A DNA stretch of 11,985 nucleotides from a virus, in IMG/VR virus record IMGVR_UViG_3300025639_000001, positions 1 through 11,985 of that record. The stretch is one strand, 5' to 3'. Below, piece by piece: positions 1 to 11,985 of this stretch. Made by a program: the position numbers and the translations under genes. Each line of letters opens with the position of its first letter. The stretch's first letter is position 1. The notes beneath the pieces are model-generated. The model was not told where the DNA came from, did no database searches, and was given only the letters and a program-made list of their open reading frames with translations.

Positions 1-127
1 AATGGGTTACTGACTTCGGACACTTAACTTCAACGCCTGACTGATTACCGATTAAACCATCAGGCGTTCCTCCGATACTATCCCCCATCGCTATAAATTC
101 CTGCCTTGTTCCTGTTCGCGTTACTGC
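1..127. repeat. Terminal direct duplication, copy 1. It is identical to 11859-11985 and indicates a circular molecule with unit length 11,858 bp.
   Basis: Base-by-base comparison shows all 127 nt identical. The minus-strand reading frame is continuous across the implied junction. Confidence 0.9.
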
Positions 128-469
128 AAAACCTGTTCTCTTTTCAAATTCAGCAATGGCTTTAACTTCGTTATCAATCCCCCATTGCATAGCATCACTA
201 ACATAACCCCCATCGTCTATAAATTCGGTTAATACCTCAACAACTTTCTCTGTCGCGTAAGTAATAGCCCCAACGGGTAAAACATCCTTAGTGGGTGCGG
301 TCGTGAGTCTGTGAAATTCTGACGCTGTAAATTTTCCGATACGTTCAAGCAACCAATCGCGGCGGATGTCTTCCGCCGTTTTCAATGGGGCTGATTTTCT
401 TAACTTAGATAAATCAGCACCACCTAATAAAATTGATTGCTCAAGGTTTTCTATATCTTGAGCATTCAT
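1..469 (-). CDS. YqaJ-type (lambda-exonuclease-like) recombination exonuclease, N-terminal portion. The gene continues across the circular junction into 11428-11985, for about 299 aa in total.
   Basis: ATG at 469 and hand translation with no stops down to base 1: MNAQDIENLEQ...GKFTASEFHRLTT...AVTRTGTRQEFIAMGDSIGGTPDGLIG. It is in frame with the ORF at 11428..11946 (469-88=381=127 codons). The GKFTASE and GGTPDG..VEVKCP motifs are typical of the YqaJ/PD-(D/E)XK exonuclease family. Confidence 0.8.
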   Translation of the reverse strand, partial: MNAQDIENLEQSILLGGADLSKLRKSAPLKTAEDIRRDWLLERIGKFTASEFHRLTTAPTKDVLPVGAITYATEKVVEVLTEFIDDGGYVSDAMQWGIDNEVKAIAEFEKRTGFAVTRTGTRQEFIAMGDSIGGTPDGLIGNQSGVEVKCPKSVTH

Positions 470-472
470 AAT

Positions 473-955
473 TTAACCCTCTACTGTTTCAATAATTAAC
501 GGGATAATCTGCCAGCGGTTAGAGCTAAAGGCGTTCGAGGTATTCCTTACCGCCCCTAGAAACGTAATTGATACAGGGGTTAATGTTGTGTTGGGTACAA
601 TCTCCCCTCTGTGAATTGCATCGCTAATATTTCCAACTAATACACGACTAGCATTAATAATACGTTGCACCTTATCGCCCGTATTCTCTAGCATCATCAC
701 ACATAACAGCGGTTTTAATTCCCCTGTTTCAAGGTCTGGGACTTCGTGAGTTCCTACGCTGTGAATATAAACAAGTTTTTCATCCCCTGCTTCTGCTGGA
801 CTCCAATACTCAACATTCAAAGGAACAAAATGCTTTCTCGCATTGGTTAATGCTGGCAGTTCTTTAGTGTCGTCTAACCTAGAACCCGCAACCTGTTCAG
901 CCGAATAAATGCCTGTTGATTCTGCTACTTTTAATTCCGTGCTTTCTGTACTCAT
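473..955 (-). CDS. Hypothetical 160-aa protein immediately upstream of, and tightly packed with, the exonuclease gene. By position it could be an annealing or ssDNA-binding partner, but I do not recognise the family.
   Basis: Intact ORF whose stop at 473 lies 4 nt before the exonuclease ATG at 469. It has ordinary amino-acid composition and the same strand as the operon. Confidence 0.6.
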   Translation of the reverse strand: MSTESTELKVAESTGIYSAEQVAGSRLDDTKELPALTNARKHFVPLNVEYWSPAEAGDEKLVYIHSVGTHEVPDLETGELKPLLCVMMLENTGDKVQRIINASRVLVGNISDAIHRGEIVPNTTLTPVSITFLGAVRNTSNAFSSNRWQIIPLIIETVEG

Positions 956-1088
956 AATATTTTTCCTGCAAATAATTTAAAATTGTTAATACCTAATTAC
1001 ATTTTTTTAACATCAAGCCTTAATGTGTCGCTCTAAGATAAAAAATAATACTTAGTAAGGTCGGGGGCGGTGCGTCCTGCCCCGCCTT

Positions 1089-1096
1089 GTATATAC
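1089..1096. promoter_or_regulatory. GTATATAC perfect palindrome (extended TGTATATACATCT), one of four intergenic copies. Candidate operator.
   Basis: The same 8-mer palindrome occurs at 7446-7453, 7479-7486 and 8426-8433. All copies lie in minus-strand intergenic gaps. Confidence 0.4.
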
Positions 1097-1190
1097 ATCT
1101 TTAAACCCTGTGTAACTTGTGCCATAATATTACCTCGTTTGTATGCCCCCACCCCCAAGGTGGGAACAAATGAAAACCAAAAAAACTACT

Positions 1191-1223
1191 AAGCCACTTT
1201 ATAATTAATTTTATAAGTGGCTT
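1191..1223 (-). terminator. Intrinsic terminator hairpin, probably bidirectional, just downstream of the 130-aa gene.
   Basis: AAGCCACTT(T)ATAA / TTATAAGTGGCTT forms a stem of about 13 bp with one bulge. It is flanked by an A-run on one side and T-runs on the other (GGCTTTTTT on plus; TTTTTTTGGTTTT 5 nt after the stem on minus). Confidence 0.6.
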
Positions 1224-1225
1224 TT

Positions 1226-1618
1226 TTATGCAACGCCTAAATAATGATCGTAATCTGAATAGTAAGAGCTATCCGCTAAACTGCTTATTCTGTCGTCGTC
1301 CCGCGATTCTTTTAGCTCTGCCTGTATCCGTTCTTCTAACTCGTCTATAGCCTCATCACTAAAAAATTGAGTAATCTCAAAAGTACCCGCATGAACTTCA
1401 TGCACTTCAATCTCCCCTTCTGCGTCCTCCAAATACATAATTAAAAAATCCTCTTCATTTTTATCTAAGCATAAGAAGATTTCACTATCTTCATTTTTAA
1501 TATTACTTTTTAAACTCACTTTAGAATCTCCATAGATTAATACTGTGTCAAAGTCTAGGTTACGAATAAATAACCAGTAGCACGGTTTGTATTGTTCTTT
1601 AATACGTTTAATGTTCAT
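1226..1618 (-). CDS. Hypothetical acidic 130-aa protein.
   Basis: Intact ORF whose ATG overlaps the stop of the upstream 60-aa ORF (ATGA-type overlap at 1615-1618). A terminator lies directly downstream. Confidence 0.6.
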   Translation of the reverse strand: MNIKRIKEQYKPCYWLFIRNLDFDTVLIYGDSKVSLKSNIKNEDSEIFLCLDKNEEDFLIMYLEDAEGEIEVHEVHAGTFEITQFFSDEAIDELEERIQAELKESRDDDRISSLADSSYYSDYDHYLGVA

Positions 1619-1797
1619 TCACTTTTGAAAATATTAACAGCCAAACCGCTATCAAAATCACGCCGATCATGTTCTTTATTGTTCCAAGCCATAATCTTTA
1701 ACTGTTCAGACATTGGGAGCTTGTTGAACGGTGTTGATGTTGGTGTTGGTGTTGGTGTTGGTGTTGGTGTTGCCTTTGTTCTTTGTTCTTTGTTCAT
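1615..1797 (-). CDS. Small 60-aa protein with an N-terminal low-complexity K/E/Q/R segment and a (Thr-Pro)n repeat.
   Basis: ATG at 1797 is preceded by AGGTGA 6 nt upstream. The ORF is translationally coupled to the next ORF and lies about 140 nt downstream of a strong promoter. Confidence 0.55.
   Translation of the reverse strand: MNKEQRTKATPTPTPTPTPTSTPFNKLPMSEQLKIMAWNNKEHDRRDFDSGLAVNIFKSE
1731..1794 (-). repeat. Microsatellites inside the 60-aa gene: 7 units of GTGTTG (plus strand, 1731-1772, one variant unit), then 3 units of the heptamer CTTTGTT (1774-1794).
   Basis: Read directly. On the sense (minus) strand this is ATGAACAAAGAACAAAGAACAAAGGCAACACCAACACC..., encoding MNKEQRTKATPTPTPTPTPTS. 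Confidence 0.9.
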
Positions 1798-1932
1798 AAA
1801 TTCACCTGTTTAATTTTTAAAGAGTTCGCCGTGTTGGGGTTAGCTAAACCCCACGACTTCGGTTTTTTCATATTTAGCCACACCAAACAGACCGCCTAAA
1901 GTGTGCAAACAAGTTTTTAATTTGTATGGTGT

Positions 1933-1961
1933 ATGATAGCACTGCTACTAATACAAGTCAA
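1933..1961 (-). promoter_or_regulatory. Sigma70-type promoter: -35 TTGACT, 17-nt spacer, -10 TATCAT. It is embedded in a 40-bp module repeated at 10315-10354.
   Basis: The minus strand reads TAGTAGCGGTGCTGTTGACTTGTATTAGTAGCAGTGCTATCAT. Plus-strand agtcaa is at 1956-1961 and atgata at 1933-1938. Confidence 0.7.
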
Positions 1962-2014
1962 CAGCACCGCTACTAAAACGAACAAGTTTATTAATAAAAT
2001 GAACAAGTAACGGG

Positions 2015-2043
2015 CAAAAAAAAGCCCCGAATAAATCGAGGCT
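2015..2043 (-). terminator. Rho-independent terminator downstream of the 100-aa gene.
   Basis: On the minus strand AGCCTCGA-TTTAT-TCGGGGCT forms a stem with one mismatch, followed by TTTTTTTT. Confidence 0.7.
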
Positions 2044-2064
2044 TTTATTAGTGCGGTTTTATAG

Positions 2065-2367
2065 TTAATCTAAAATATTACCGCCTGCGATTGCATTTAT
2101 CACATCGCGTAATAAGCAATCCCCGTTAAAATCTCCTTGATAAGCGGGTCTATTATTTAGAAAGCAAAACCCATCAATCCCTAAATTTGTTTTTGAAAAT
2201 CTTATTAAGTAGATGTCATTAAATTCCCCATCATCTACGCTGATTGAAAGAAACCCCTGACTTATAAGGCTTGAAAACTTTTGTTTTTTTACATCATCGA
2301 TTTTTATATCTAAATGTTTTTTGCTTTTTGACTCTTTTAAAAAAAATGGATTCATTTCATTACTCAC
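2065..2367 (-). CDS. Hypothetical 100-aa protein.
   Basis: Intact ORF bracketed by two clear minus-strand terminators. No family recognised. Confidence 0.55.
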   Translation of the reverse strand: MSNEMNPFFLKESKSKKHLDIKIDDVKKQKFSSLISQGFLSISVDDGEFNDIYLIRFSKTNLGIDGFCFLNNRPAYQGDFNGDCLLRDVINAIAGGNILD

Positions 2368-2387
2368 TATTAATATTTAAAACGATA

Positions 2388-2420
2388 CTTAAAGAAACCC
2401 ACGCCCGTTGGGGCGTGGGT
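2388..2420 (-). terminator. Rho-independent terminator downstream of the 129-aa gene.
   Basis: A 10-bp GC-rich stem ACCCACGCCC / GGGCGTGGGT with a 4-nt loop, followed on the minus strand by TTTCTTT. Confidence 0.8.
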
Positions 2421-2425
2421 GTTAT

Positions 2426-2815
2426 TTAAAAATAATTGTTATCTATACAGTGCTTGAAATACTCGCCCCATTCTTCTCCCACTTGCTTAGATGTGATTCC
2501 ATAAGGCTTTAAGGCTTCGAGAGCATCTGAAAAATCCCATGTGATTTGGCATTCATAATTTGCCAGCGAATCCCAGATTATTACTTTTAAAGTATTGTTT
2601 TCTTTTTCGTATTCAATACATTCATCATGTAATAACTCTAAATCCTTTAACACATGAGAGCCAGAGCCAACGGGAGCAACAAGCCCTCCGCCGCAATCTT
2701 CATATTTAACGCCCTCTATTTTTTGCTCATCAAATTGAGAATTACTAAAACAGAAAAAAGCACCGTGATTATTAAAAATTTTAGTTTGTAAATTATCTTT
2801 ATTTAATTTTTTCAT
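2426..2815 (-). CDS. Hypothetical 129-aa protein (MKKLNKDNLQTKIF...). I use the ATG at 2815 as the start, not the 3019 start in the ORF track.
   Basis: Normal protein-like sequence begins at MKKLNK. The upstream 68 codons of the track ORF lie in the A-free tract, where no stop codon is possible. Confidence 0.65.
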   Translation of the reverse strand: MKKLNKDNLQTKIFNNHGAFFCFSNSQFDEQKIEGVKYEDCGGGLVAPVGSGSHVLKDLELLHDECIEYEKENNTLKVIIWDSLANYECQITWDFSDALEALKPYGITSKQVGEEWGEYFKHCIDNNYF

Positions 2816-2854
2816 TTTATTATTTTGTTGTTTGTATTTAGAAAAAAGATGTTT

Positions 2855-3804
2855 GAGAAGAAACCCAACGCCAAGCCCCAGACCACACGCCCGAACCACC
2901 AACAGAAACCCACGAGCCAGAACCCAAAGAGGGCAAGGCAGAACCAGCAAACCCACAGGCAAACGCGAACACGGGCAAGCCGCGACCAACAGCCAGCCGA
3001 CAAGCCAAGGCAGAACCAACAGAACGGGGAGAACTGAAAAACACCACCGCCGAAACTGAAGCCGAACCGATCACCGCAGAAGTGCGAGCAGAAAGGCGAA
3101 CACGCAAGGCAACACCAGAACCGCCGCCCGACCACCACGAAACAGAACCGCCACCAGCCGCGAAACCAGACACCGCAGGAACAGCAGACAGCGAACAAGA
3201 ACCAACGCCACCCGAACCGAACGCCGAGAAACAAGAACCAGAGCCAGCAGGCAGGCAGGACAAAACGAACGAATCCAAGCCAACACAACAGCCGACCGAA
3301 ACCGAACGACCCGAACCCAGAACCGAACCAACGACCGACCGAACCAGCGGGGAAAACGAGGGCGAAAGCCCCCGCGAACCAGCAAAGGCAACCACCGCCA
3401 CCACTAGACCCCAGAAACCCAAACGCAGGAAGCAGGCAAAGCCGCCGCAGGCAACAAAGCAAGGGCAGGCGAAACGGCAACGGGAACAGAAACCCCGAAC
3501 ACACCGCCAGCAAAACAGCGAACAACACAAGGGAAACCAACAGCCCCAGCCCAAGCCGCCGCAAAAGCAGAAGCCGCCGAAGAAGAACGGAAGCCCACCA
3601 CCACAACAGCACCAGAAAAAGACCGACCAGACAAACGAACACGCCACCGACAAGCACCAGCAGACAAGGCAGACCCGACAAGCGAACGCCACCAAGGAGC
3701 GACCAGCGGACGAACACCACCGCGACAAAAAGAACGAGAACGAACAACAGAAAAAACAGACATGGAACACCCCACAAAAAAAGGAACAAGAAAACCAAGG
3801 GAAC
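2855..3804 (+). other. Strand-asymmetric tract of about 950 nt with 7 T on the plus strand (7 A on the minus strand). It is A/C/G-only and GC-rich relative to its flanks.
   Basis: In my line-by-line reading, T occurs only at 3035, 3057, 3071, 3083, 3274, 3405 and 3763. The longest T-free run is 3406-3762 (357 nt). Sampled 60-nt lines give about 32-35% A, 40-47% C and 22-25% G. Confidence 0.95.
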
Positions 3805-4044
3805 TACCCCCCACTGAATGACCATTTTACCAAAAAAAGAACCAAAACACCAGCGAAAAAACAAAGAAACATGAGCAAAAACAGGGGCTTGCACTTGCCC
3901 AGCCATGCCTTTAATATTTCAGATTATATTGAATGGGAAGTAAATTTAAGGGAAAAGAAAATGCTTGATGGGGAGAAACAAGCGGGGGCTTTTTGGGCGG
4001 GGGCTTTTTCCCGCACAAAAACCACCGCAACTGCTAGAGCTTAA
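3082..4044 (+). CDS. Candidate U-free coding region for a disordered P/E/T/K/Q-rich protein. The frame is open from 2857, and GTG 3082 is only the first conventional-type start, so the true start is unknown.
   Basis: This is the only plus frame uninterrupted through the tract, and it stays open for about 80 more codons into normal-composition DNA (stop at 4042-4044). Hand counts show a G codon-phase bias. There is no clear SD or ATG. Confidence 0.35.
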   Translation: MRAERRTRKATPEPPPDHHETEPPPAAKPDTAGTADSEQEPTPPEPNAEKQEPEPAGRQDKTNESKPTQQPTETERPEPRTEPTTDRTSGENEGESPREPAKATTATTRPQKPKRRKQAKPPQATKQGQAKRQREQKPRTHRQQNSEQHKGNQQPQPKPPQKQKPPKKNGSPPPQQHQKKTDQTNEHATDKHQQTRQTRQANATKERPADEHHRDKKNENEQQKKQTWNTPQKKEQENQGNYPPLNDHFTKKRTKTPAKKQRNMSKNRGLHLPSHAFNISDYIEWEVNLREKKMLDGEKQAGAFWAGAFSRTKTTATARA

Positions 4045-4308
4045 TTAACTACATCTGTCCGACCCGTAGCGTAGCGGAGGGGAGTTATTAAAACGCGTAG
4101 CACAAAATGTTATTAATCTAATGCGGCATGCAGGACGCTTGCCGCAAATTGTGCAGGGATGCACAGGTTTCTTTAATTTCTAAACTTCAATAATGCCAGT
4201 GATTGCCTTGCCTGTAGGTGTGGGGCTTTTTATTGCGTAGCATTAAAGAAAGCCACCACCGAAAGGCAGGGCGAGAACGGCAAACTACTTTGTAAGGATT
4301 GGCGTTAG

Positions 4309-4352
4309 TGTGGGATTTTTTAATTGCGTTTTTTGCATTAAAAAAATCCCCA
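4309..4352. repeat. Long imperfect AT-rich inverted repeat (hairpin or cruciform) in the 456-bp noncoding region.
   Basis: GTGGGATTTTTTAATTGC - GTTTTTT - GCATTAAAAAAATCCCCAC. The arms pair over about 17 bp with small indels. Confidence 0.6.
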
Positions 4353-4419
4353 CTGAAAGCCGAGCCGAATTAACCCCTGATTAATTTAATAAACATATTT
4401 TTAGGGGGTAACGCTAATA

Positions 4420-4488
4420 CCTAAGCTACCTGTGCGGTAGTCAACAAAAAATTAATAATAATACATTTCTAAGCTACCTTTTCGGCAG
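4420..4488. repeat. Two 21-nt direct repeats, CTAAGCTACCTgTgCGGtAGT and CTAAGCTACCTtTtCGGcAGT, 48 bp apart and separated by AT-rich sequence.
   Basis: Copies at 4420-4440 and 4468-4488 are identical at 18 of 21 positions. Confidence 0.7.
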
Positions 4489-4500
4489 TAATTAATTATA

Positions 4501-5130
4501 TCAAAAGTATTTCATCCGCTTCTCTTTCCATTCCGCCGCATCAATCAAACCCATTTCATAAAGTCGTTTCTGGTCATGGAAATAGGGGGTGAAATCATCA
4601 TCCACTTGTTCACGATTAGAATACCTTACGCCTACTTGTTCGCGGTCTGCACTGAAATCATCAGCAAAAAAACTAGGCTGGTTATTTTCAATATATCGTT
4701 TAATCTTATGGTCAGGTGAATACATCCCCCACCCAAAACAAATCAAACAAATCACAGCAGAAAATACATACTCGCCACCGTTGCCCGTTCTAAGTTTGCC
4801 GCCGAATAAATGAAATCGTGCATCAGACCAAGGGCTAAATGGTACGCCTGCAATAGTAAACGAATCAGCTAACACATGGGATAAGCCGCCCACTGCAAAA
4901 CCTAATCCAAATCCGCGCCAATCAATCCCCACAAATTTAAAAAATAATACCAATGCTATCCAGTACAAAACAATATGCGTTGTGGTTCTATGCTTGATAC
5001 GCCTAAATGGTTTCGCTACCATCTCCATCCAATCGGGAGCGGTTGAGCCTAAGATAGCCGCAGGTACAGCCAGCGGACTAATGATAGTTCCTAATGCCGC
5101 CCCAATCAGCACATGACTTTGCCATCTCAT
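4501..5130 (-). CDS. Membrane-bound metal-dependent hydrolase of the YdjM/DUF457 type.
   Basis: Polytopic hydrophobic protein with an N-terminal H..IG segment, HRTTTH and GGLSHVLAD motifs. These resemble the LexA-regulated YdjM family, recognised from memory rather than a search. Confidence 0.6.
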   Translation of the reverse strand: MRWQSHVLIGAALGTIISPLAVPAAILGSTAPDWMEMVAKPFRRIKHRTTTHIVLYWIALVLFFKFVGIDWRGFGLGFAVGGLSHVLADSFTIAGVPFSPWSDARFHLFGGKLRTGNGGEYVFSAVICLICFGWGMYSPDHKIKRYIENNQPSFFADDFSADREQVGVRYSNREQVDDDFTPYFHDQKRLYEMGLIDAAEWKEKRMKYF

Positions 5131-5136
5131 AAATTA

Positions 5137-5379
5137 CTACTTAAAACAAAATTGATATTCACTAGCAACACTCTCAATATCTTCAATCGGTAAATCATAA
5201 CTCTTCACCTCTCCAGCTTTATTAAGTAAAGCAATCGCCATTGCCTTAGCACAGACGGCTACCACTTGCTTAGGGTAAGCCGTTCTTATTATTTTCTCGT
5301 CTTTCCCTCCAAACAATATAACTGAATAAATTGCAGTCGGGATTAAAAATATTAAACAATCTCTTCTACTGATTTTCAT
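5137..5379 (-). CDS. Small 80-aa membrane-anchored hypothetical protein. I use the ATG at 5379 as the start.
   Basis: AGAGGTGA lies 5 nt upstream of ATG AAA ATC. There is one N-terminal hydrophobic segment (CLIFLIPTAIYSVILFGG). The gene overlaps the upstream gene by 14 nt. Confidence 0.55.
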   Translation of the reverse strand: MKISRRDCLIFLIPTAIYSVILFGGKDEKIIRTAYPKQVVAVCAKAMAIALLNKAGEVKSYDLPIEDIESVASEYQFCFK

Positions 5380-6085
5380 TTGAATCACCTCTTATCTGGC
5401 TTAATATTATATTGTTTACACGTTCCGCAACATCAGGTCGACACTGGGCTTTCAATGCTATCCTAGCACCGCTAATATCAGCATCTGCTTGATCTATGTT
5501 TGATTGTTCACCCGCTACTTTTTCTAAGTAACCTATTTGCTCCTCAACTTTGGCAATCCCATTTCTCACCCGTGCCTGACTTCGCTTCTCCAGTGATACA
5601 TAAAGCCCCATCATCCTATTGGCTCTACGTTTCTTTGATACCGCCTTTAATAATAAGGCAATGGTTTTAGATGTTTGCTGTCTACGCCTATAGCCTTCCG
5701 AGGTAATCTTGTTAATTTCTGATCCTGAATACAGGGGCATACTAAATACAATGCCTGCATAATACAATCCACTGTCATTAGTCCCGATCTGACTTGTTAC
5801 CTTATCCCGATAATTAGCACCCGCCTTAAATCCTACTTCAATGCCCCAAGGTTTAGCAGGGTAACAATTTGAAACGGTACGCATCAAGTAATCGCCATTA
5901 ATCTGGTACTGCTTATCAATGGACGGCTGTATGTCTTGCCAGTCTACTTCTTCACCAGTAAAGGTAGGCATTTTATAAGGCTTAATCTCATCCCTGACTA
6001 CTACGCCATCAGCAAGGTTATCATCAGCAACCACAATACCTAGTGGCATAAGCAAGAATAAAAACAATATAAGGTACTTGTTCAT
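5366..6085 (-). CDS. Secreted or periplasmic hypothetical protein of about 239 aa, with a signal peptide and a C-terminal region that looks coiled-coil.
   Basis: ATG at 6085 gives MNKYLILFLFLLMPLGIVVA|DD, a classical Sec signal. The 6121 start in the ORF track is a GTG and would overlap the upstream gene. Confidence 0.6.
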   Translation of the reverse strand: MNKYLILFLFLLMPLGIVVADDNLADGVVVRDEIKPYKMPTFTGEEVDWQDIQPSIDKQYQINGDYLMRTVSNCYPAKPWGIEVGFKAGANYRDKVTSQIGTNDSGLYYAGIVFSMPLYSGSEINKITSEGYRRRQQTSKTIALLLKAVSKKRRANRMMGLYVSLEKRSQARVRNGIAKVEEQIGYLEKVAGEQSNIDQADADISGARIALKAQCRPDVAERVNNIILSQIRGDSNENQ

Positions 6086-6092
6086 TGATAGA

Positions 6093-6857
6093 TTAATCTT
6101 GTTTACTACCACGCCGCCCACCTTTCATTGTTTGAAGCAATCCCAATACCGCCGCCATTTCAGTAAGCCCTAAGCCCATCAGCGTAATGATAAACATCCA
6201 AACTAATACATGGGTAGCATCATAGGCAACATCAGTGTTTAGCCTAATGAATTGGGGCTTACTATCTAAGAACAACTTGCGAATACTGGGGCTTAACTTG
6301 TTCTCATCTGATGCCGCAATCACAGCCCTGAATGATGAATGTAAACAATCCTTTGTCACCTGTAATTTCCTACCCGTTAATTTATGAGCATCATCAATAA
6401 ACAATATTGCCCGCGTATCTTTAAGATATTCAGGAATAAGCTCTACACGCTTCCACGCTGGAACTTTTTTATATTCATTCTCTGAATGCTTAGACTCATA
6501 CCACTCCTTAACGCCCTCGTGTTCTGTCCACTTTGACAAGGGAGTGATGCCGTTCAACATCACAGGCTCAGGGAATACCCAATCATCAAGGCTCTCACCC
6601 TTTTTTAATACCGGCTTATCTTTTAATACCTTTGCCTTAGTAAATTTATAAGGCTTCACTTGGCATTGCCATATTATTTCCGCATTATCATGTAGCCGAT
6701 TAATAGCACCAGATTTACCCGAATGATGTGCGCCTGTTATTAGGATATTCTTCTGCTTGCTGATTACTTGGGTATCTGTAACCCTACTACCATAGCCCCC
6801 ACGCGTCCTTACTTCTGGTTGCCCTCTGTTGTTTTTATTGATTCTTAGACTTTTCAT
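6093..6857 (-). CDS. P-loop NTPase with a C-terminal transmembrane anchor.
   Basis: Walker A is GAHHSGKS and Walker B is ILFIDDAH. The hydrophobic helix VLVWMFIITLMGLGLTEMAAVLGLL is followed by a basic tail. Confidence 0.65.
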   Translation of the reverse strand: MKSLRINKNNRGQPEVRTRGGYGSRVTDTQVISKQKNILITGAHHSGKSGAINRLHDNAEIIWQCQVKPYKFTKAKVLKDKPVLKKGESLDDWVFPEPVMLNGITPLSKWTEHEGVKEWYESKHSENEYKKVPAWKRVELIPEYLKDTRAILFIDDAHKLTGRKLQVTKDCLHSSFRAVIAASDENKLSPSIRKLFLDSKPQFIRLNTDVAYDATHVLVWMFIITLMGLGLTEMAAVLGLLQTMKGGRRGSKQD

Positions 6858-6893
6858 AGGCTGTTTTTTAACTTTAAAATCATTTTATTAATG

Positions 6894-6921
6894 CCATCAA
6901 TCCAAACTAATGGATTGATGG
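6894..6921 (-). terminator. 10-bp perfect hairpin downstream of the 73-aa gene. Possible terminator or attenuator, but the T-run is weak.
   Basis: CCATCAATCC - 8-nt loop - GGATTGATGG. On the minus strand it is followed by CATTAATAAAATGATTTT. Confidence 0.3.
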
Positions 6922-6945
6922 GGCGTTATTTCAGGGGGTATTGAT

Positions 6946-7167
6946 TCAGTCCATACCAATTAAAGCCGCGTTTAGTATAGGCTCTAACAATACCTCTAAT
7001 AATACCTCCGCATCATTGGCGGCATCAACTGGGTCACGCAAAACCGCAGAATGTAATGCCACCTTTAACCATGTCGATGCACTTGGATCATTTAATATCT
7101 CATTGACCGAATCAGAGAATGCCGCCTCAATCTTATCAACCCTATACTCTCCCTTTGTTTCTGTCAT
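6946..7167 (-). CDS. Hypothetical acidic 73-aa protein.
   Basis: Intact ORF starting 4 nt after the stop of the RHH gene. No family recognised. Confidence 0.5.
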   Translation of the reverse strand: MTETKGEYRVDKIEAAFSDSVNEILNDPSASTWLKVALHSAVLRDPVDAANDAEVLLEVLLEPILNAALIGMD

Positions 7168-7170
7168 TCT

Positions 7171-7419
7171 TCACCCCTCAATGTTGCTGTCGCAATTACT
7201 ACAAATATAAAGATTCTCTAATTGCTCAATAGTACCAGCTCCGCACGCTGGACATTGTGAATCATCACTAAGATGGACGGGGATTTGATAGTAACTATTC
7301 AATGCAGTTTCAATTAATATAGCCCTACTTTCCTGCTGTCTATCCATCCAATGAAGTAGGTAAGGCGGTAGTCTTGTGCTTATCATTTTCTTTTTATGTA
7401 TGTTTCTTAATGCTGGCAT
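7171..7419 (-). CDS. Ribbon-helix-helix (CopG/Arc-like) DNA-binding protein with a C-terminal CxxC...CxxC zinc ribbon.
   Basis: ISTRLPPYLLHWMDRQQESRAILIETALNSYY fits the RHH beta-strand plus two-helix pattern. The zinc-ribbon motif is CPACG...CSNC. An AGAGGA/AAGGG SD region lies upstream. Confidence 0.6.
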   Translation of the reverse strand: MPALRNIHKKKMISTRLPPYLLHWMDRQQESRAILIETALNSYYQIPVHLSDDSQCPACGAGTIEQLENLYICSNCDSNIEG

Positions 7420-7445
7420 CCCTTGAATCCTCTAATGCTCAATAG

Positions 7446-7486
7446 GTATATACATCAATTACTTTATTATACGTTAATGTATATAC
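7446..7486. promoter_or_regulatory. Pair of GTATATAC palindromes (7446-7453 and 7479-7486) directly upstream of the RHH gene. Candidate operator/promoter region.
   Basis: Two perfect 8-bp palindromes 33 bp apart, in the 81-bp gap between the rdgC stop and the RHH start. Confidence 0.45.
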
Positions 7487-7500
7487 ATCTTGAAAGACTG

Positions 7501-8403
7501 TTATCGCGTAGCTTCACCAAAGAACATAATTAAATCGACAATCATATTTGTTAATTCAGCGGCAACAATAAACCTGTTAGCTTCATAACCATGAGCAGGG
7601 TCTTCATCTTTCTCAATTACGCCATCATCATCTTCTGAAATATCACTGATTGATTTAATAAAGAAATCATCAGTGATAGTAAAGGATAAATTTTTACGCC
7701 ACTCAAGCCCTGCCGAGATAGCCATACCTCCAGCATTTACCATATCCCTAACTTCGCCGTTACTATCAAACCCCGATAACTTAGCAACCTTTTCTGTTTC
7801 ACCCTGTATGGTCTTAACTTCATATTTACCGCTCATAGATAAGCCTGACGACATTTCTTTATCAATGCCTATCCAATAGTTCAATGTTTGCCATACAGGG
7901 ACTTTAGCGGCTAACGGAACAACTGGCAGACTTCCAAGTGTCACCCTTAAATGAGATAACAATAACTCCGCCTTACTTGGGCTTGCAGCATCCACACAAA
8001 TTAAACCGCTATCTTGATTAATAAAGGCATCAACAAATGAATACTGAACAAATGCACGGGGCATCAATTCATTTATTATTTCGTCTTTGAGTTCTGCACG
8101 GTTTTTCTTTGCTACTTTCTTTTGTATCTTGTTCTCTAACTCTGCTACACGTTCGCGTAACTCATCATTAATTACTGATTGAGGTAATAGCCGTGTGTTT
8201 ATCTTTAATCTAATGAAAATAGAATCGCCACAGGCTAAGGCTAGATCATCCTGAACATATGGGTTAGGCTCACACCATCCGAAATTTTTAGGGGTAGTTT
8301 TTCCGATAGGCTTAACTCTGTACTTATCTAGCTTTGCCTGTAAAATCTTAGGATCAAGATTTAGAGGTGTTTGTATTCTGTAAAAAATAGCATTCTTGAA
8401 CAT
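7501..8403 (-). CDS. rdgC: Recombination-associated protein RdgC.
   Basis: 300 aa. The N-terminus MFKNAIFYRI, the internal LMPRAF...D.....GLI.VDAAS..KAE.LLS.LR..LGSLPVVPL block and the C-terminal ...GEA.R closely parallel E. coli RdgC as I recall it. AGGA lies 8 nt upstream of the ATG. Confidence 0.85.
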   Translation of the reverse strand: MFKNAIFYRIQTPLNLDPKILQAKLDKYRVKPIGKTTPKNFGWCEPNPYVQDDLALACGDSIFIRLKINTRLLPQSVINDELRERVAELENKIQKKVAKKNRAELKDEIINELMPRAFVQYSFVDAFINQDSGLICVDAASPSKAELLLSHLRVTLGSLPVVPLAAKVPVWQTLNYWIGIDKEMSSGLSMSGKYEVKTIQGETEKVAKLSGFDSNGEVRDMVNAGGMAISAGLEWRKNLSFTITDDFFIKSISDISEDDDGVIEKDEDPAHGYEANRFIVAAELTNMIVDLIMFFGEATR

Positions 8404-8425
8404 TTGTTAATCCTGTTTTTAATAT

Positions 8426-8433
8426 GTATATAC
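8426..8433. promoter_or_regulatory. GTATATAC palindrome upstream of rdgC.
   Basis: Fourth copy of the same palindrome, in the gap between the loader ATPase stop and the rdgC start. Confidence 0.4.
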
Positions 8434-8488
8434 ACTATAATAGCCGCTTGTTACACGGCTAAAATAGATTTAATAAGTTTCTTGGCGG

Positions 8489-9286
8489 TTACTTATATTT
8501 AGCTTCTTCTGCATTGGGTAGGTGCTGGTTTCGGTCTACCCTATGCCGGTAACTTTCCCAATCCATCACAATGGCACTACCTCCATTCTCTCGCATCCTA
8601 TCAACTGCACGCTCTCCCAGATATTTCTTAATCTCATTAATGTTTAAATTTGATATTAATATTGTAGATTTAAAAAATGAATACCTATCATCAATTACTT
8701 CAAACAATATGTTCTCCTCGTCTTGTGTCCCACGCTGTACGCCTATCTCATCAATAATTAACAAATCAATATCTCTGAACTCATCAATGGCTTGTTGCTC
8801 TGTCTTGGTTGAATTAGATCGGTAAGTTTCTCTAATCCGCCTAATCAGTGCAGATACTTTGATAAACAATACAGAACCCACTTTTATATATTCATTACCA
8901 ATAGCACAAGCTAGATGGGTTTTCCCTGTACCAACACCGCCCGATAATATCAATCCTGTGCCTTTGCCTGCATCTTCCTTAATGAGCTTTAGATAGCTCT
9001 CTGCCATCCCTAATGCCGTTGTATGTTTTTCTGTATAACAATCATAATTATTAAATGATCGGGTTGTATAGCGTGGCGGTATCTCACTGCGTTTAAAGTT
9101 TAGGCTTATCTTTTTTCTGATAGCTTCCAGTTTTTGCTTTTGCAATTCCTCCTGTTCTGCCAGCTTGCTTGCTTCCGAACACTTAGGGCATGATTCTGAA
9201 TGCTCAGTTTTTCCAATCTTATAAGCTCTGGCTTCATAGTTAAGGCTATGAATCTCACAAAACATTTTCTTAGTAGTTACTTCCAC
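8489..9286 (-). CDS. DnaC/IstB-like AAA+ replication (helicase-loader type) ATPase with an N-terminal Cys-rich segment.
   Basis: Walker A is GGVGTGKTH and Walker B is LLIIDEIG. It sits directly after the initiator gene, as in lambdoid O-P modules. GTG start with AAAGGA 6 nt upstream. Confidence 0.8.
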   Translation of the reverse strand: MEVTTKKMFCEIHSLNYEARAYKIGKTEHSESCPKCSEASKLAEQEELQKQKLEAIRKKISLNFKRSEIPPRYTTRSFNNYDCYTEKHTTALGMAESYLKLIKEDAGKGTGLILSGGVGTGKTHLACAIGNEYIKVGSVLFIKVSALIRRIRETYRSNSTKTEQQAIDEFRDIDLLIIDEIGVQRGTQDEENILFEVIDDRYSFFKSTILISNLNINEIKKYLGERAVDRMRENGGSAIVMDWESYRHRVDRNQHLPNAEEAKYK

Positions 9287-9300
9287 ATTTAATCCTTTCG

Positions 9301-10053
9301 TTAGTTTGTATTAAAGCCATCTAAGCCAGCACTGTAATCAGTATTAGCAATGCTCTGCTTAGTTCGCTTATGGTTATTTGTTTGGTTCTTTATTTGTTGT
9401 GCCTTACCTTTATTCATATCTGCTTCAAATTGACTCCTTAGCCCTTTGGGGCTGTTCTTGTTGTATAGGTAAATAAATTTACTAATGTCGGTTACAGCAT
9501 CACCCCAAAATGGGTGAGATTTAGCCCAATCGAAACATTGTTTTTGAGCATCGGTTTTAAGAGAGAGAGAGTTATTAGTTTCTATTACTGGTTTATAGCC
9601 AGATTCTGACCCACCCCCCGTCAGATTCTGACCCACCCCCGTCAAAATTTGGCTATCTGATTCTATTGGCTTGTAGCTGTCCGAATCATTACAGCCCTTT
9701 GTTTTAGCATAGGCAGAATTTGACCCACCCCCACTTGTAAAATGACCACTAGCCAGATTTTGCCCCTCTGATTCTATTGGCTTGTAACTTAGGTTCAAAA
9801 CGTACTGGTTTGATGTTCTAACCTTACCAATCGATTTATTTACTACACTTAAATAGCCATTGTTTGCCAATACCTTAATTTGTGTTTTAAGGCTTGATAC
9901 ACTCATACAGCACTCTTTGGCAAGTAGTGAATGGCTTGGGTTACATTGCCCTGTATGCCCGTTTGAATGATTAGCCAGCATAAGCAATACTAGCTTTTGT
10001 GATGAGTTCTTGCACTTCTGATTAACCGCCCATGTCATTGCTTCAAAGCTCAT
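9301..10053 (-). CDS. Replication initiator-like protein with an N-terminal winged-helix/HTH (phage O or DnaD-like organisation) and an internally repetitive linker.
   Basis: The N-terminus MSFEAMTWAV...KLVLLMLANHSN...CNPSHSLLAKECCMSVSSLKTQIKVLANNGYL resembles helix-turn-helix replication proteins. It is followed by the loader ATPase, and its ATG overlaps the stop of the XRE gene (ATGA). Confidence 0.65.
   Translation of the reverse strand: MSFEAMTWAVNQKCKNSSQKLVLLMLANHSNGHTGQCNPSHSLLAKECCMSVSSLKTQIKVLANNGYLSVVNKSIGKVRTSNQYVLNLSYKPIESEGQNLASGHFTSGGGSNSAYAKTKGCNDSDSYKPIESDSQILTGVGQNLTGGGSESGYKPVIETNNSLSLKTDAQKQCFDWAKSHPFWGDAVTDISKFIYLYNKNSPKGLRSQFEADMNKGKAQQIKNQTNNHKRTKQSIANTDYSAGLDGFNTN
9580..9790. 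repeat. Iteron cluster inside the initiator gene (candidate origin). CAGAtTcTGACCCACCCCC occurs 3 times plus a degenerate copy, and CTGATTCTATTGGCTTGTA occurs twice plus a degenerate copy.
   Basis: The first motif is at 9600-9619, 9622-9640 and 9714-9732, with a degenerate copy at 9754-9766. The 19-mer is perfect at 9657-9675 and 9768-9786, with a related copy around 9580-9600. Confidence 0.6.
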
Positions 10054-10283
10054 ACGGTCATACTCTCGCGTGACATCTTTACATCATTGTTAAGAATACT
10101 GGCATCAGTTCCATATATTTTTTCAATAGCAATAGATACTGATACTGATATTGGACGCTCCCCCCTTATCCACTGACCCACCATGCTCTGAGTTATATCT
10201 AAAGACTTTGCTAACTTTGTTTGATTAAGGTTCTTTTCAGCTATTAATTTTTTTATTTCTTCACTAACTTTATTTTCTTTCAT
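10050..10283 (-). CDS. XRE/Cro-CI family helix-turn-helix transcriptional regulator.
   Basis: NLNQTKLAKSLDITQSMVGQWIRGERPIS is a canonical XRE HTH. AGGAG lies 6 nt upstream of the ATG. It is the first gene after the promoter at 10311-10339. Confidence 0.8.
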   Translation of the reverse strand: MKENKVSEEIKKLIAEKNLNQTKLAKSLDITQSMVGQWIRGERPISVSVSIAIEKIYGTDASILNNDVKMSRESMTV

Positions 10284-10310
10284 ATCATCTCCTAATTTTA
10301 ATTAAAGATA

Positions 10311-10339
10311 ATAATAGCACTGCTACTAATGCAAGTCAA
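10311..10339 (-). promoter_or_regulatory. Sigma70-type promoter: -35 TTGACT, 17-nt spacer, -10 TATTAT. It is the twin of the promoter at 1933-1961.
   Basis: The minus strand reads TAGTAGCTGTGCTGTTGACTTGCATTAGTAGCAGTGCTATTAT. It lies about 28 nt upstream of the XRE gene ATG. Confidence 0.7.
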
Positions 10340-10485
10340 CAGCACAGCTACTATTGAGAAGTAATGCCAGAAATATCAAGATTACTTCCTACAGAACAAA
10401 TCGACCGCTAAGCGTTTATGGGTTCGACTAAAAAACAAGTAATGGGTAAAGTAGCATAACCTTTCATCCAATCAATTAATCATAA

Positions 10486-11397
10486 ATGAAATTTATAATC
10501 ATATTACTATCACTGACTTGTTCGGTTGCCTATGCTCATGGTGGACGCACTAATTCAAAGGGCTGTCATACAAACAAAAAAACAAATAACTTACATTGCC
10601 ACAATAAATCATCCAAACAAATAACAAGGAAATCTCCCACAAATGGCGCGGAGAATTTATTGCCTGCATTGGCTTATGCCAGTAGCTCTGAACCCACAAC
10701 ATACGCCACAGAATCACAAAGCGGCGATATTATGCGGCTTGATTATGAGGGTTTTACCGTATGGCTAGATTGTTCAAAACGTGGGGCTGTTAAATTCAGA
10801 TATAACGCCCAACGTGATACGGGCAACCATAAAAGGCATGGCTCTTTTTTCCTTGATCCTAAAGTACCTAAGCGATGCCAGCAATATTCTGGTAAATCTT
10901 ATAAGGCAGGTAAGGGAATTAAATATGATCGTGGGCATTTAGTTCCAGCCAATCATTTAGATTATTCAAAGACAGCAATCAAAGCCAGCAACACCATGAC
11001 GAACATCTTGCCACAAGCGGCGAACATGAACAGAGGAGCATGGTTACTAACAGAAGAAATTATTGAATGCTACAGGGATATTGATGAACTTCTAATTATT
11101 GGGGGGGTGATTTGGGGGAACAACCCAGCAGATGATTATTTTATACAATCTCACGGCGTAAAAACTCCAGATGCTTTTTGGAAAGTAATAATTAGGGGTT
11201 CAGGTTCAGATGAGCGTGCGATTGCTTGGATTGTTCCCAATAGCAAAGACGCTAAACGTAAGCAACTTGATAAGTACCTTGTCAGCATCAAAGAAATTGA
11301 ACGCGTGACCGGTGAAACAATACCTGTTGCTGATTACATTAAACAGGATAAGCCTAGTGGCTCATGGGTGTTACCGCGTGGATGTGATAAAAGTTAA
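10486..11397 (+). CDS. Secreted DNA/RNA non-specific endonuclease (Serratia NucA-like beta-beta-alpha-metal family).
   Basis: The signal peptide is MKFIIILLSLTCSVAYA. The catalytic-type motif is DRGHLVPANH with a downstream NMNRG (metal-ligand Asn region). It is the only confidently called plus-strand gene. Confidence 0.75.
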   Translation: MKFIIILLSLTCSVAYAHGGRTNSKGCHTNKKTNNLHCHNKSSKQITRKSPTNGAENLLPALAYASSSEPTTYATESQSGDIMRLDYEGFTVWLDCSKRGAVKFRYNAQRDTGNHKRHGSFFLDPKVPKRCQQYSGKSYKAGKGIKYDRGHLVPANHLDYSKTAIKASNTMTNILPQAANMNRGAWLLTEEIIECYRDIDELLIIGGVIWGNNPADDYFIQSHGVKTPDAFWKVIIRGSGSDERAIAWIVPNSKDAKRKQLDKYLVSIKEIERVTGETIPVADYIKQDKPSGSWVLPRGCDKS

Positions 11398-11427
11398 TCA
11401 TGTTCGCACGTCCTTGTGCTTGTTCAT

Positions 11428-11985
11428 TTAGTGCTTGGTTGAAGTAATCGCAAACTCTTCAATGTCTGAAAGCCGCCACTCCAAAGGATTCTGATTAATT
11501 GGTTCAGGGAATTTGTTTTCTTTCCTGAGCTTCCATAATTTAGTACGCCCTATTTTTAACAGCTTTAAAGTGCTGGCTTGTGATAGTGTCGCCCTTGAAT
11601 CCGCGCCACGACTCGCCAATAATTCGCCCTTTAATTCCATAGCCTGTTTTAATCGCTTAATTAAAAACTCTTGGTCTTCCTCATTCGCATTTATTAATAC
11701 GCTGTGCAATTTGTCAGAATCCTTTTTATAGCGTGGATCATAGCTAATAAAATACCAATGTGAACAGCCCGCAAGCATCATCAAGCCCTGCACCTGCCAA
11801 TAATATTCTTGTGCAATTCTTTTTAAATCATCCCCATTATTAATCGCCAAATATTTAAAATGGGTTACTGACTTCGGACACTTAACTTCAACGCCTGACT
11901 GATTACCGATTAAACCATCAGGCGTTCCTCCGATACTATCCCCCATCGCTATAAATTCCTGCCTTGTTCCTGTTCGCGTTACTGC
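11428..11985 (-). CDS. C-terminal portion of the YqaJ-type exonuclease, fused to a C-terminal AlpA/excisionase-like HTH. The frame is open to the window end and continues at 128-469.
   Basis: GGTPDGLIG..GVEVKCP and YYWQVQGLMMLAG..WYFISYDPR are YqaJ core motifs. The C-terminus TLSQASTLKLLKIGRTKLWKLRKENKFPEPINQNPLEWRLSDIEEF matches the AlpA-type pattern (L..s.st.yrl...g.FP.P......W..sdI..w). Confidence 0.8.
   Translation of the reverse strand, partial: AVTRTGTRQEFIAMGDSIGGTPDGLIGNQSGVEVKCPKSVTHFKYLAINNGDDLKRIAQEYYWQVQGLMMLAGCSHWYFISYDPRYKKDSDKLHSVLINANEEDQEFLIKRLKQAMELKGELLASRGADSRATLSQASTLKLLKIGRTKLWKLRKENKFPEPINQNPLEWRLSDIEEFAITSTKH
11859..11985. repeat. Terminal direct duplication, copy 2, identical to 1-127.
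   Basis: Same comparison as copy 1. The duplication ends exactly at the window end. Confidence 0.9.

Follow-up and report, generated by a model that had tools for sequence, protein, structure and literature searches.

A nearly adenine-free candidate operon for a DprA-like protein in a small replicon and its relatives: selection against one nucleotide

Why would a small replicon keep almost one kilobase of sequence in which one of the four nucleotides is practically missing? The question is raised by the IMG/VR virus record IMGVR_UViG_3300025639_000001, of which positions 1 to 11,985 were analysed (this whole stretch of 11,985 nucleotides is called the window hereafter). Between 2855 and 3804 its plus strand contains exactly 7 T in 950 nucleotides (nt), together with 41% A, 35% C and 23% G, and the edges of this tract are sharp. 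An initial annotation, made from the letters alone, had located the seven T, and a recount confirmed all of their positions (Table 1). It had also excluded drift, which is borne out by a binomial probability of about 1e-147 for 7 T or fewer in 950 nt when T makes up 32.4% of the window outside the tract. The arithmetic that it drew from the composition (stop codons and ATG nearly absent from every frame, palindromes containing A/T absent) holds as well. Its worry that the segment might be an assembly artefact could be dismissed, because a near-identical tract was recovered in three other records and the same trait was found in finished plasmids: the tract is 100% identical in L003 (ENA ERZ534229, a contig of 11,935 bp with a 77-nt overlap) and is present at 99.9% identity in the contigs L001 and L002, from two Joint Genome Institute (JGI) samples. 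A megablast search with the whole window against phage and plasmid collections gave no match. The tract is native to the element, since avoidance of GGCC, CCGG and GCGC is common to both; a foreign GC-rich insertion was considered and rejected on this ground and because third codon positions in the tract are T-rich, as in host genes. An origin from repeats was rejected too, the repeats being short and weak and the dinucleotide observed/expected ratios close to 1.

Read on the minus strand, the tract appears to be a two-gene transcription unit, gene A followed by the DprA-like gene B, whose RNA would be nearly free of adenine (Table 1). Both genes have the same orientation as the neighbouring genes, and the GTG of gene B overlaps the TAG of gene A (cTAGTG). 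After its initiator Met, gene A uses V, A, S, G, R, F, L, P, C and W exclusively. The putative extended -10 box was missed by a consensus promoter scan because a good -35 is absent. A relative, L022 (ENA ERZ23498523, 9.7 kb), has a homologous A-poor stretch at the same place downstream of its YdjM gene. The stretch is A-poor on the YdjM-sense strand and contains two open reading frames (ORFs) in the orientation of their neighbours, each with GGAG and ATG, with a terminator-like hairpin between them and a strong promoter (TTGTAA-17-TATAAT) ahead of the pair. Gene B is 74% identical to its counterpart there (g2), whereas the flanking YdjM is merely 51% identical to that of the window. One promoter-like sequence with an embedded palindrome (TTGTAA-tATT/tGTT-ACAA ... 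TATAAT) occurs twice in L022, at 6860-6905 and 7975-8010, i.e. before the A-poor pair and before the next downstream gene, which suggests that the pair and this gene share a repressor-controlled promoter.

Table 1. Positions in the window of the two predicted genes, their putative signals and the seven T of the tract
Feature	Position	Strand	Remarks
Gene A	3763..3404	(-)	ATG 3763-3761, TAG 3406-3404; 119 amino acids (aa), function unassigned
Gene B	3404..2838	(-)	GTG 3404-3402, TAA 2840-2838; predicted 188-aa DprA-like (SLOG/Rossmann) protein
Adenine-poor 5' untranslated region (5'UTR)	3764..3816	(-)	Read from the sequence; no A in the 41 nt before the ATG
A-less Shine-Dalgarno-like G-run, GGGG	3773-3770	(-)	6 nt ahead of the gene A ATG
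Putative extended -10 (TGgTAAAAT)	3824..3832	(-)	Read from the sequence; just upstream of the start of adenine avoidance
T	3763	(+)	Minus-strand A in the gene A start codon ATG
T	3405	(+)	Minus-strand A in the gene A stop codon TAG
T	3274	(+)	Asp codon (GAT), invariant across the whole family
T	3083	(+)	Thr codon, conserved in L022
T	3071	(+)	Ile codon, conserved in L022
T	3057	(+)	Ser codon
T	3035	(+)	Ser codon

The low ratio of nonsynonymous to synonymous divergence (dN/dS) and the dominance of third-position differences argue that genes A and B are real genes under purifying selection. Comparison of gene B with L022 gave 47/37/101 differences at codon positions 1/2/3 and a Nei-Gojobori dN/dS of 0.20, the lowest of the six frames. 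For gene A, the differences with the homologues in L076, L030, L032 and L033 are 7/4/29, 22/8/47, 28/24/61 and 32/24/64, respectively, with dN/dS of 0.12-0.26 across the four; gene A homologues hold 0-10 A per 354-363 nt, even at a synonymous divergence (dS) above 1. Most of the functions proposed in the initial annotation do not survive this reading of the strands. An A-free 1-kb leader for the gene at 2426-2815 gives way to a minus-strand RNA that carries two conserved protein-coding genes. There is a practically negligible probability that the tract instead serves as a plus-strand mRNA, U-free and coding for a disordered protein, or that it works without coding, as an R-loop or priming element. 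Plus frame 1 is indeed open (2857-4044) and shows a 3-base periodicity, but an open frame is trivial when T is absent, and the periodicity arises because this frame shares its wobble position with gene B; moreover, its phase shifts at the gene A/gene B junction, as two minus-strand genes predict. No start codon is present in this frame before GTG 3082, the homologous frame in L022 is interrupted by a stop, and dN/dS is 0.37 against 0.20 for the minus-strand frame. The search with the frame-1 translation that had been recommended found no protein homologue and no Pfam or PHROG match for the 395-aa product. As to R-loops or priming, the RNA is no more structured than its shuffles (z of +0.9 for the minus-sense and -1.2 for the plus-sense RNA, neither significantly better), no Rfam match lies within the tract, and the feature tracks gene and transcript boundaries in more than 50 loci.

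How far the adenine content falls below what the proteins require can be estimated by fixing the protein sequence and taking codon usage from the element's other 17 genes. For gene A, 45 A-containing synonymous codons were expected and none was seen (P ~1e-29); for gene B, 72 were expected and 2 were seen (P ~1e-47), giving 117 against 2 for both genes together. The residues whose codons need A (K, N, D, E, Q, H, Y, I, M and T) represent 50% of the element's other proteins; gene A has none of them (0%) past its initiator Met, and gene B has 2.7%. Adenine is excluded at the three codon positions, far past the amino-acid requirement, and the constraint is at the nucleotide level; the odd amino-acid composition is therefore its consequence. 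The suggestion in the initial annotation that the constraint acts on nucleic acid rather than on protein is thus upheld by the codon expectation.

Adenine depletion of this kind is not confined to the window. A search with an alignment of A-less members retrieved 72 metagenomic, 3 viral and 4 genomic loci. In more than 50 non-redundant loci the DprA-like gene has 0.2-5% A, as compared to 17-36% in the flanks; the flank G+C ranges from 34 to 68% and the length of the A-less tract from 0.55 to 1.56 kb. Relatives of normal composition (16-30% A) exist as well: when the 150 best representatives at 50% identity were scored for residues that oblige an A, 58 had less than 5% of them, within a continuum reaching 36%, and many of the low-A representatives keep a single one, the invariant Asp. 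About 18 other loci have a gene A homologue ahead of their DprA-like gene. The upstream partner comes from either of two unrelated families, both A-less and both without a Pfam match, which makes adenine avoidance a trait of the operon rather than of a single protein. Family members are carried by seven plasmids of cultured Gammaproteobacteria; these were reached by tblastn against cultured phages and plasmids with a normal-composition member as query, an A-less query having given no match, probably because of masking. All four plasmids analysed (Nitrosococcus oceani ATCC 19707 plasmid A, Allochromatium vinosum DSM 180 pALVIN01, a Methylocaldum szegediense plasmid and a Methylobacter sp. YRD-M1 plasmid) have 1.0-1.3 kb at 0-11 A per 100 nt, versus about 11-39 outside. 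On N. oceani plasmid A (L106, 3631-4237), a HicA/HicB toxin-antitoxin pair and a DUF932 gene come directly after the A-poor pair, NOC_RS17965 and NOC_RS17960. No depleted tract was found in the DUF7659 relatives L004-L016 or in most YdjM relatives (L017-L021, L024), the YdjM relative P0016 alone having led to L022. Comparison of these sequences shows that adenine avoidance has outlasted the saturation of synonymous sites in dozens of lineages, with genomes that range from 34 to 68% G+C, which is the outcome that the composition check proposed in the initial annotation was meant to look for.

Such persistence bears on the idea that the pattern is a functionless mutational scar, left by a strand-specific local adenine mutator such as a deaminase, a reverse transcriptase of the type found in diversity-generating retroelements, or transcription-associated damage. 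The sense (non-template) strand is G+T-rich and the boundaries of the tract are those of the transcription unit, as such a mutator could produce. However, the A's of L022 align to G, T and C in the window about equally (15, 13 and 12 cases), so that there is no A-to-G bias and adenine deamination is not indicated. Many lineages maintain the trait at dS > 1, with the A retained in conserved Asp, Thr and Ile codons, and translation signals are recoded functionally. No reverse transcriptase, template repeat or deaminase was found in the element or its conserved neighbours; in particular, the scanned ORFs of the window and the neighbour clusters examined have no reverse-transcriptase domain, and a search limited to 2700-4200 detected no repeat of the tract that would point to a diversity-generating retroelement. 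We find a mutational origin hardly credible.

The anatomy of the avoidance is more telling about its target. When 50 non-redundant loci are aligned on the stop codon of the DprA-like gene, A averages 3-4% within the gene and 22-25% from the first base past the stop, with the exception of terminators, where the 3' untranslated region (3'UTR) is A-less through the T-run. At the other edge, the tract often begins just past a -10-like box (TATACT in L069 and L033, TTGCAA-17-TGTATAAT in L101, TAATAT in L030 and L076) and the leader is A-less. Translation signals follow the same rule. With starts assigned heuristically, the ribosome-binding site (RBS) is an A-less G-run (GGGGGTG-N5-GTG) replacing GGAGG in 32/44 loci, and 34/44 use GTG or TTG as start codon. 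Stop codons are TAG in 27 cases, TAA in 16 and TGA in 7, as compared to 44, 95 and 86 in flanking ORFs (p = 1.4e-6). The residual adenines also depend on their 5' neighbour: the observed/expected ratio is 0.35 for GA, 0.63 for TA, 1.82 for CA and 2.13 for AA, GA being rarer than TA and TA rarer than CA. The same order is seen among synonymous A-ending codons, with 1.0% for Gly GGA, 1.6% for CGA, 5.0% for Ala GCA and 6.0% for Ser TCA, versus 15-25% in the flanks. Across codon junctions, an A at position 1 after a G is found in 0.9% of cases, against 20.7% in the flanks. These sequence patterns show selection on the transcript or its template against adenine, strongest for 5'-GA-3' and reaching the translation signals.

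One may ask whether it is translation itself that is being protected. A-less codons are read by tRNAs without an anticodon U, and the two proteins could therefore still be made after an attack by agents such as PrrC, PARIS or Cas13a-type nucleases, which destroy the tRNAs for Lys, Asn, Glu, Gln, Tyr and others. The jump in adenine exactly at the stop codon (from 3-4% to 22-25% over the 50 loci) is what one would expect, and so is the rarity of the ten residues whose codons need A, which account for 0-3% of both proteins versus 50% in those of the other genes. Yet the 5'UTR, the RBS and, where present, the 3'UTR through the terminator are likewise A-less, the GA effect spans codon junctions as well as codon interiors, and the preference among stop codons is left unexplained, which makes a purely translational cause very improbable.

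Alternatively, the template could be at stake: a transcribed strand free of thymine would never block RNA polymerase through thymine-directed DNA lesions, be it ADP-ribosylation of T in single-stranded DNA (ssDNA) by DarT or UV dimers, and a recombination-mediator gene would still be expressed from damaged DNA. DarT modifies T in ssDNA within the motif TNTC. A sense GA is a template TC, matching the T-C step of this motif, and GANA is somewhat rarer than the other XANA (12/226 versus about 10%). The product is modelled with a DprA-like fold, which is that of ssDNA/RecA mediators, and the element has recombination neighbours, YdjM (PF04307), RdgC and YqaJ; YdjM belongs to the SOS regulon. On the other hand, a TNTC-type enzyme needs two T's and selection should relax long before 0.5% A is reached, while recoding of the RBS, the start codon and TGA indicates RNA or its translation. 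UV in particular was set aside: AA, which is TT in the template and hence the main UV target, is enriched among residual A's (o/e 2.13), and many loci come from sediments and groundwater. Protection of the template is, all in all, quite improbable.

What do these genes encode? An exhaustive phmmer search with gene B returned 573 cluster representatives. Relatives of normal composition match the Pfam family DNA_processg_A (DprA, PF02481), P0194 with 33.2 bits against a cut-off of 29.6, below which six other normal-composition homologues scored; the protein of the window had no Pfam match even at E <= 1, and its profile found nothing useful among Protein Data Bank (PDB) sequences. An AlphaFold2 model computed from an alignment of 86 family members is a single domain with a predicted local distance difference test score (pLDDT) of 96.8 and a predicted template modelling score (pTM) of 0.91, as compared to a pLDDT of 36 for a run on the single sequence. 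Foldseek matched the model to DprA of three species (5mll, 4ljk, 3maj and 3uqz) and to ShosA (8zva) with a probability of 1.0, E values of 2e-5 to 9e-4 and template modelling (TM) scores of 0.56-0.63; phage DprA-like/SLOG proteins were matched as well. The gene B product is, according to this model, a DprA-like Rossmann domain. It resembles DprA by its Rossmann fold and by the family motifs GSR ... GCxxGxD ... RLxxRT, and differs in that its 188 aa make up the core alone, without the SAM-like N-terminal and the C-terminal winged-helix domains; accordingly, the Foldseek matches span just the Rossmann core of targets of 213-353 aa. Its composition is unlike that of any characterised DprA or ShosA. 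The PADLOC models for ShosA and PsyrA match normal-composition relatives over about 55 N-terminal aa and do not match the protein of the window. Nor was a toxin domain of the phosphoribosyltransferase (PRTase) type seen among the scanned ORFs of the window (ten with Pfam and PHROGs, the rest through Pfam tags), so that, as a difference from the ShosTA and PsyrTA systems, the adjacent PRTase-domain toxin was not found beside gene B. Gene A had no match in Pfam, PHROG, NCBIfam or PADLOC, and no recognisable relatives of it were found outside these operons. In one normal-composition relative (L055; see also L053) the DprA-like domain is fused into a 461-aa protein. Beside it, L055 encodes a 641-aa protein matching PF05183 (3120-5045; 25.4 bits, cut-off 23.8), the family of cellular two-barrel RNA-dependent RNA polymerases (RdRP), and a 399-aa RNase H-domain protein (1495-2694).

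The possibility that we tentatively prefer, with a probability of roughly 0.4, is that avoiding adenine lets the message evade an adenine-directed attack on RNA. Selection would keep the messenger free of adenine, above all of 5'-GA-3', so that an RNA-attacking, adenine-directed effector could not touch it. A published enzyme that would fit as the opponent is the CmdT-type mRNA ADP-ribosyltransferase of the CmdTAC defence system. To our knowledge, enzymes of the CmdT type are the sole described class with exactly this specificity. CmdT ADP-ribosylates N6 of the A in GA of single-stranded RNA, thereby stopping translation, and its discoverers pointed out that GA occurs in Shine-Dalgarno sequences (PMC11618068). 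A message without GA, with a GGGGG RBS and a TAG stop, would be left untouched by CmdT, and the operon would still be translated in cells whose other messages are disabled. The DprA-like product would then serve the mobile element in rescue or in counter-defence. By analogy such a role is plausible, because ShosA, an antitoxin that is itself DprA-like, relies on ssDNA binding and RecA to neutralise the toxin ShosT, an adenine phosphoribosyltransferase (APRTase)-like protein which 'disrupts purine metabolism' (PMC12961424, PMC11961720). Of the functional proposals in the initial annotation, the last, i.e. immunity to a base-specific enzyme or transcription when a nucleotide is scarce, survives in this way as a class of explanations.

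Several points weigh against evasion of an RNA-directed effector. CmdT modifies essentially GA alone, yet the depletion extends to CA, TA and AA, by a factor of about five or more; several effectors with different contexts, or another enzyme, would therefore be needed. With its 41% U, the A-less RNA remains exposed to other RNases. In operons with a further gene downstream, adenine is back directly past the stop, hence the protection would be limited to the two ORFs and their leader. No conserved neighbour that would indicate a specific opponent was found among the neighbour clusters examined, no escape from CmdT by sequence composition has been reported, and the tie of the genes to any defence system is one that we infer from sequence. 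Our confidence is held at the above value because adenine outside GA is depleted too, because of this indirect tie to defence and because the role of the proteins is deduced from their fold.

A further point comes from genes lacking another letter. In L091, the gene at 49-426 (+), with 2 C in 378 nt, codes for a protein of the DUF4326 family (PF14216, E 6.8e-16) and lies directly upstream of a normal-composition DprA-like gene; in L083, the gene at 47-289 (+) is part of a 300-nt stretch with about 6 C (10 C over a 332-nt tract) and lies directly upstream of an A-less DprA-like gene. There are, therefore, one-letter-missing genes for at least two letters; the IMG/VR relatives of the C-less DUF4326 gene (L104, L105) are of normal composition. 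C-less genes would call for a second, cytosine-directed agent, and a cause in the nucleotide pool fits them at least equally well. The latter explanation supposes that transcription of an A-less operon can go on once ATP has run out, been converted or given way to an analogue that terminates chains, for instance through ShosT-like PRTase toxins, RADAR-type ATP deamination or ATP nucleosidases, the DprA-like product being a ShosA-like antidote. Viperins make CTP-derived chain terminators, and the C-less genes beside relatives would suit these. ShosA, the antitoxin of the purine-disrupting ShosT, is DprA-like and is itself among the structural matches (8zva), normal-composition relatives match the PADLOC ShosA/PsyrA models over about 55 aa, and A is missing from the whole transcript, not from codons alone. 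Nonetheless, shortage of a nucleotide should act irrespective of the base on its 5' side, but the avoidance of GA is far stronger than that of CA. TAA, with two A's, outnumbers TGA, with one, and TAG strongly outnumbers TGA; ATP is also required for translation and tRNA charging; and no PRTase toxin adjoins the genes of the window. We thus regard a pool-based origin as unlikely, and the evasion of adenine-directed attack on the message as the better starting point.

The element that carries the tract deserves a brief description. The window represents an 11,858-bp circle in circularly permuted form, with a 127-nt terminal overlap and the YqaJ gene split across the ends. Its genes include lambda-type replication genes (O-like, DnaC-like), RdgC, the YqaJ exonuclease, a secreted Endonuclease_NS, YdjM (PF04307) and DUF7659, and searches of its ORFs with Pfam and PHROGs found no virion, integrase or transfer genes. 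Having replication and recombination genes without those functions, it looks like a small plasmid-like or satellite-like replicon; its hosts, judging from relatives, are likely to be Methylococcales or Chromatiales. Restriction sites are avoided all over the element: GGCC was seen 0 times for 29 expected, CCGG 3 for 17.5 and GCGC 4 for 23, while CGCG is spared (19 for 13.9), a classical restriction-avoidance signature. Just downstream of the YdjM stop, at 4418-4445 and 4466-4493 (-), two units resembling type I-F CRISPR repeats stand 20 nt apart and match Rfam CRISPR-DR4 at 32.2 and 19.8 bits (gathering score 35). No further array accompanies this pair, which is kept in the near-identical L001 and L003 and in the relative L025; it may represent a mini-array, or else an RNA derived from repeats and of anti-CRISPR or regulatory type. 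The 0.6 kb between 3900 and 4500 contain no convincing gene; they hold a tandem GCGGGGGCTTTTT pair at 3982-4009, several GCGTAGC-like repeats (~4060-4240) and hairpins followed by T-runs, and may be an origin/iteron region or encode small RNAs. Finally, a (GGTGTT)x7 tandem repeat at 1730-1772 is translated as TPTPTPTPTP in a 60-aa ORF, 1615-1797 (-), which overlaps the start of the next gene.

In the full texts that we searched, where subscription journals were thinly covered, no A-less or adenine-depleted prokaryotic genes are described, and for a transcription unit deprived of one nucleotide, in a state that a large family conserves, we found no natural precedent there. A more general proposition, to which we would give an even chance, is that mobile elements carry 'lipogram' operons, i.e. 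three-letter genes with their translation signals, usable under attack by a base-specific effector or on a nucleotide pool; it would cover both the A-less genes here and the C-less ones in the neighbourhood of relatives, with natural, well-folded, enzyme-like domains made of about ten amino acids as a by-product. If true, this would add a new principle to the contest of mobile elements with their hosts, in which omitting a letter protects the message. Scans for ORFs missing one letter would then predict counter-defence genes, and the omitted letters would reveal, in natural sequences, which base and which context an RNA-directed immune effector recognises. A natural Rossmann-type fold made from F, L, S, C, W, P, R, V, A, G and one Asp would also bear on protein design and on questions about the early code. 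There is, besides, a practical side to it, as annotation has a blind spot here: gene callers merge, extend or miss such genes, or pick the wrong strand (e.g. in L001). They fuse the stop-less upstream region onto the DprA-like protein (P0135-P0139, N-terminally extended), the PLSDB gene table of pALVIN01 has no gene in the A-less tract, which lies at about 61.35-62.6 kb of this plasmid (L109, ~2200-3450), and on the Methylocaldum plasmid an opposite-strand ORF is annotated over part of it (L107, 2411-2905). Cultured strains carrying the trait make the hypothesis directly testable.

How does this compare with what is known? With CmdTAC, the common point is that the target of CmdT, the A in GA, including that of Shine-Dalgarno sequences, is the most strongly avoided context here; the differences are that CmdTAC is a proposed opponent, not a relative, and that adenine outside GA is avoided as well. 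Synthetic G-less or U-less cassettes, which serve transcription assays, are likewise sense-strand stretches without one nucleotide, but they are artificial. In vertebrate mRNAs, adenine-poor signal-sequence coding regions serve nuclear export; there too the sense strand is poor in one nucleotide, but these regions are short, just depleted and eukaryotic. The closest in logic are perhaps the avoidance of restriction sites and the ACA-less messages that escape MazF, in which the target of an enzyme is purged and coding capacity is kept. Motif avoidance of that kind is recognised by depletion at synonymous sites relative to the rest of the genome, and such a depletion is found here to an extent that exceeds the described cases: the whole nucleotide is gone from the entire unit, leaving an amino-acid alphabet of about 10 letters and a recoded RBS, start and stop.

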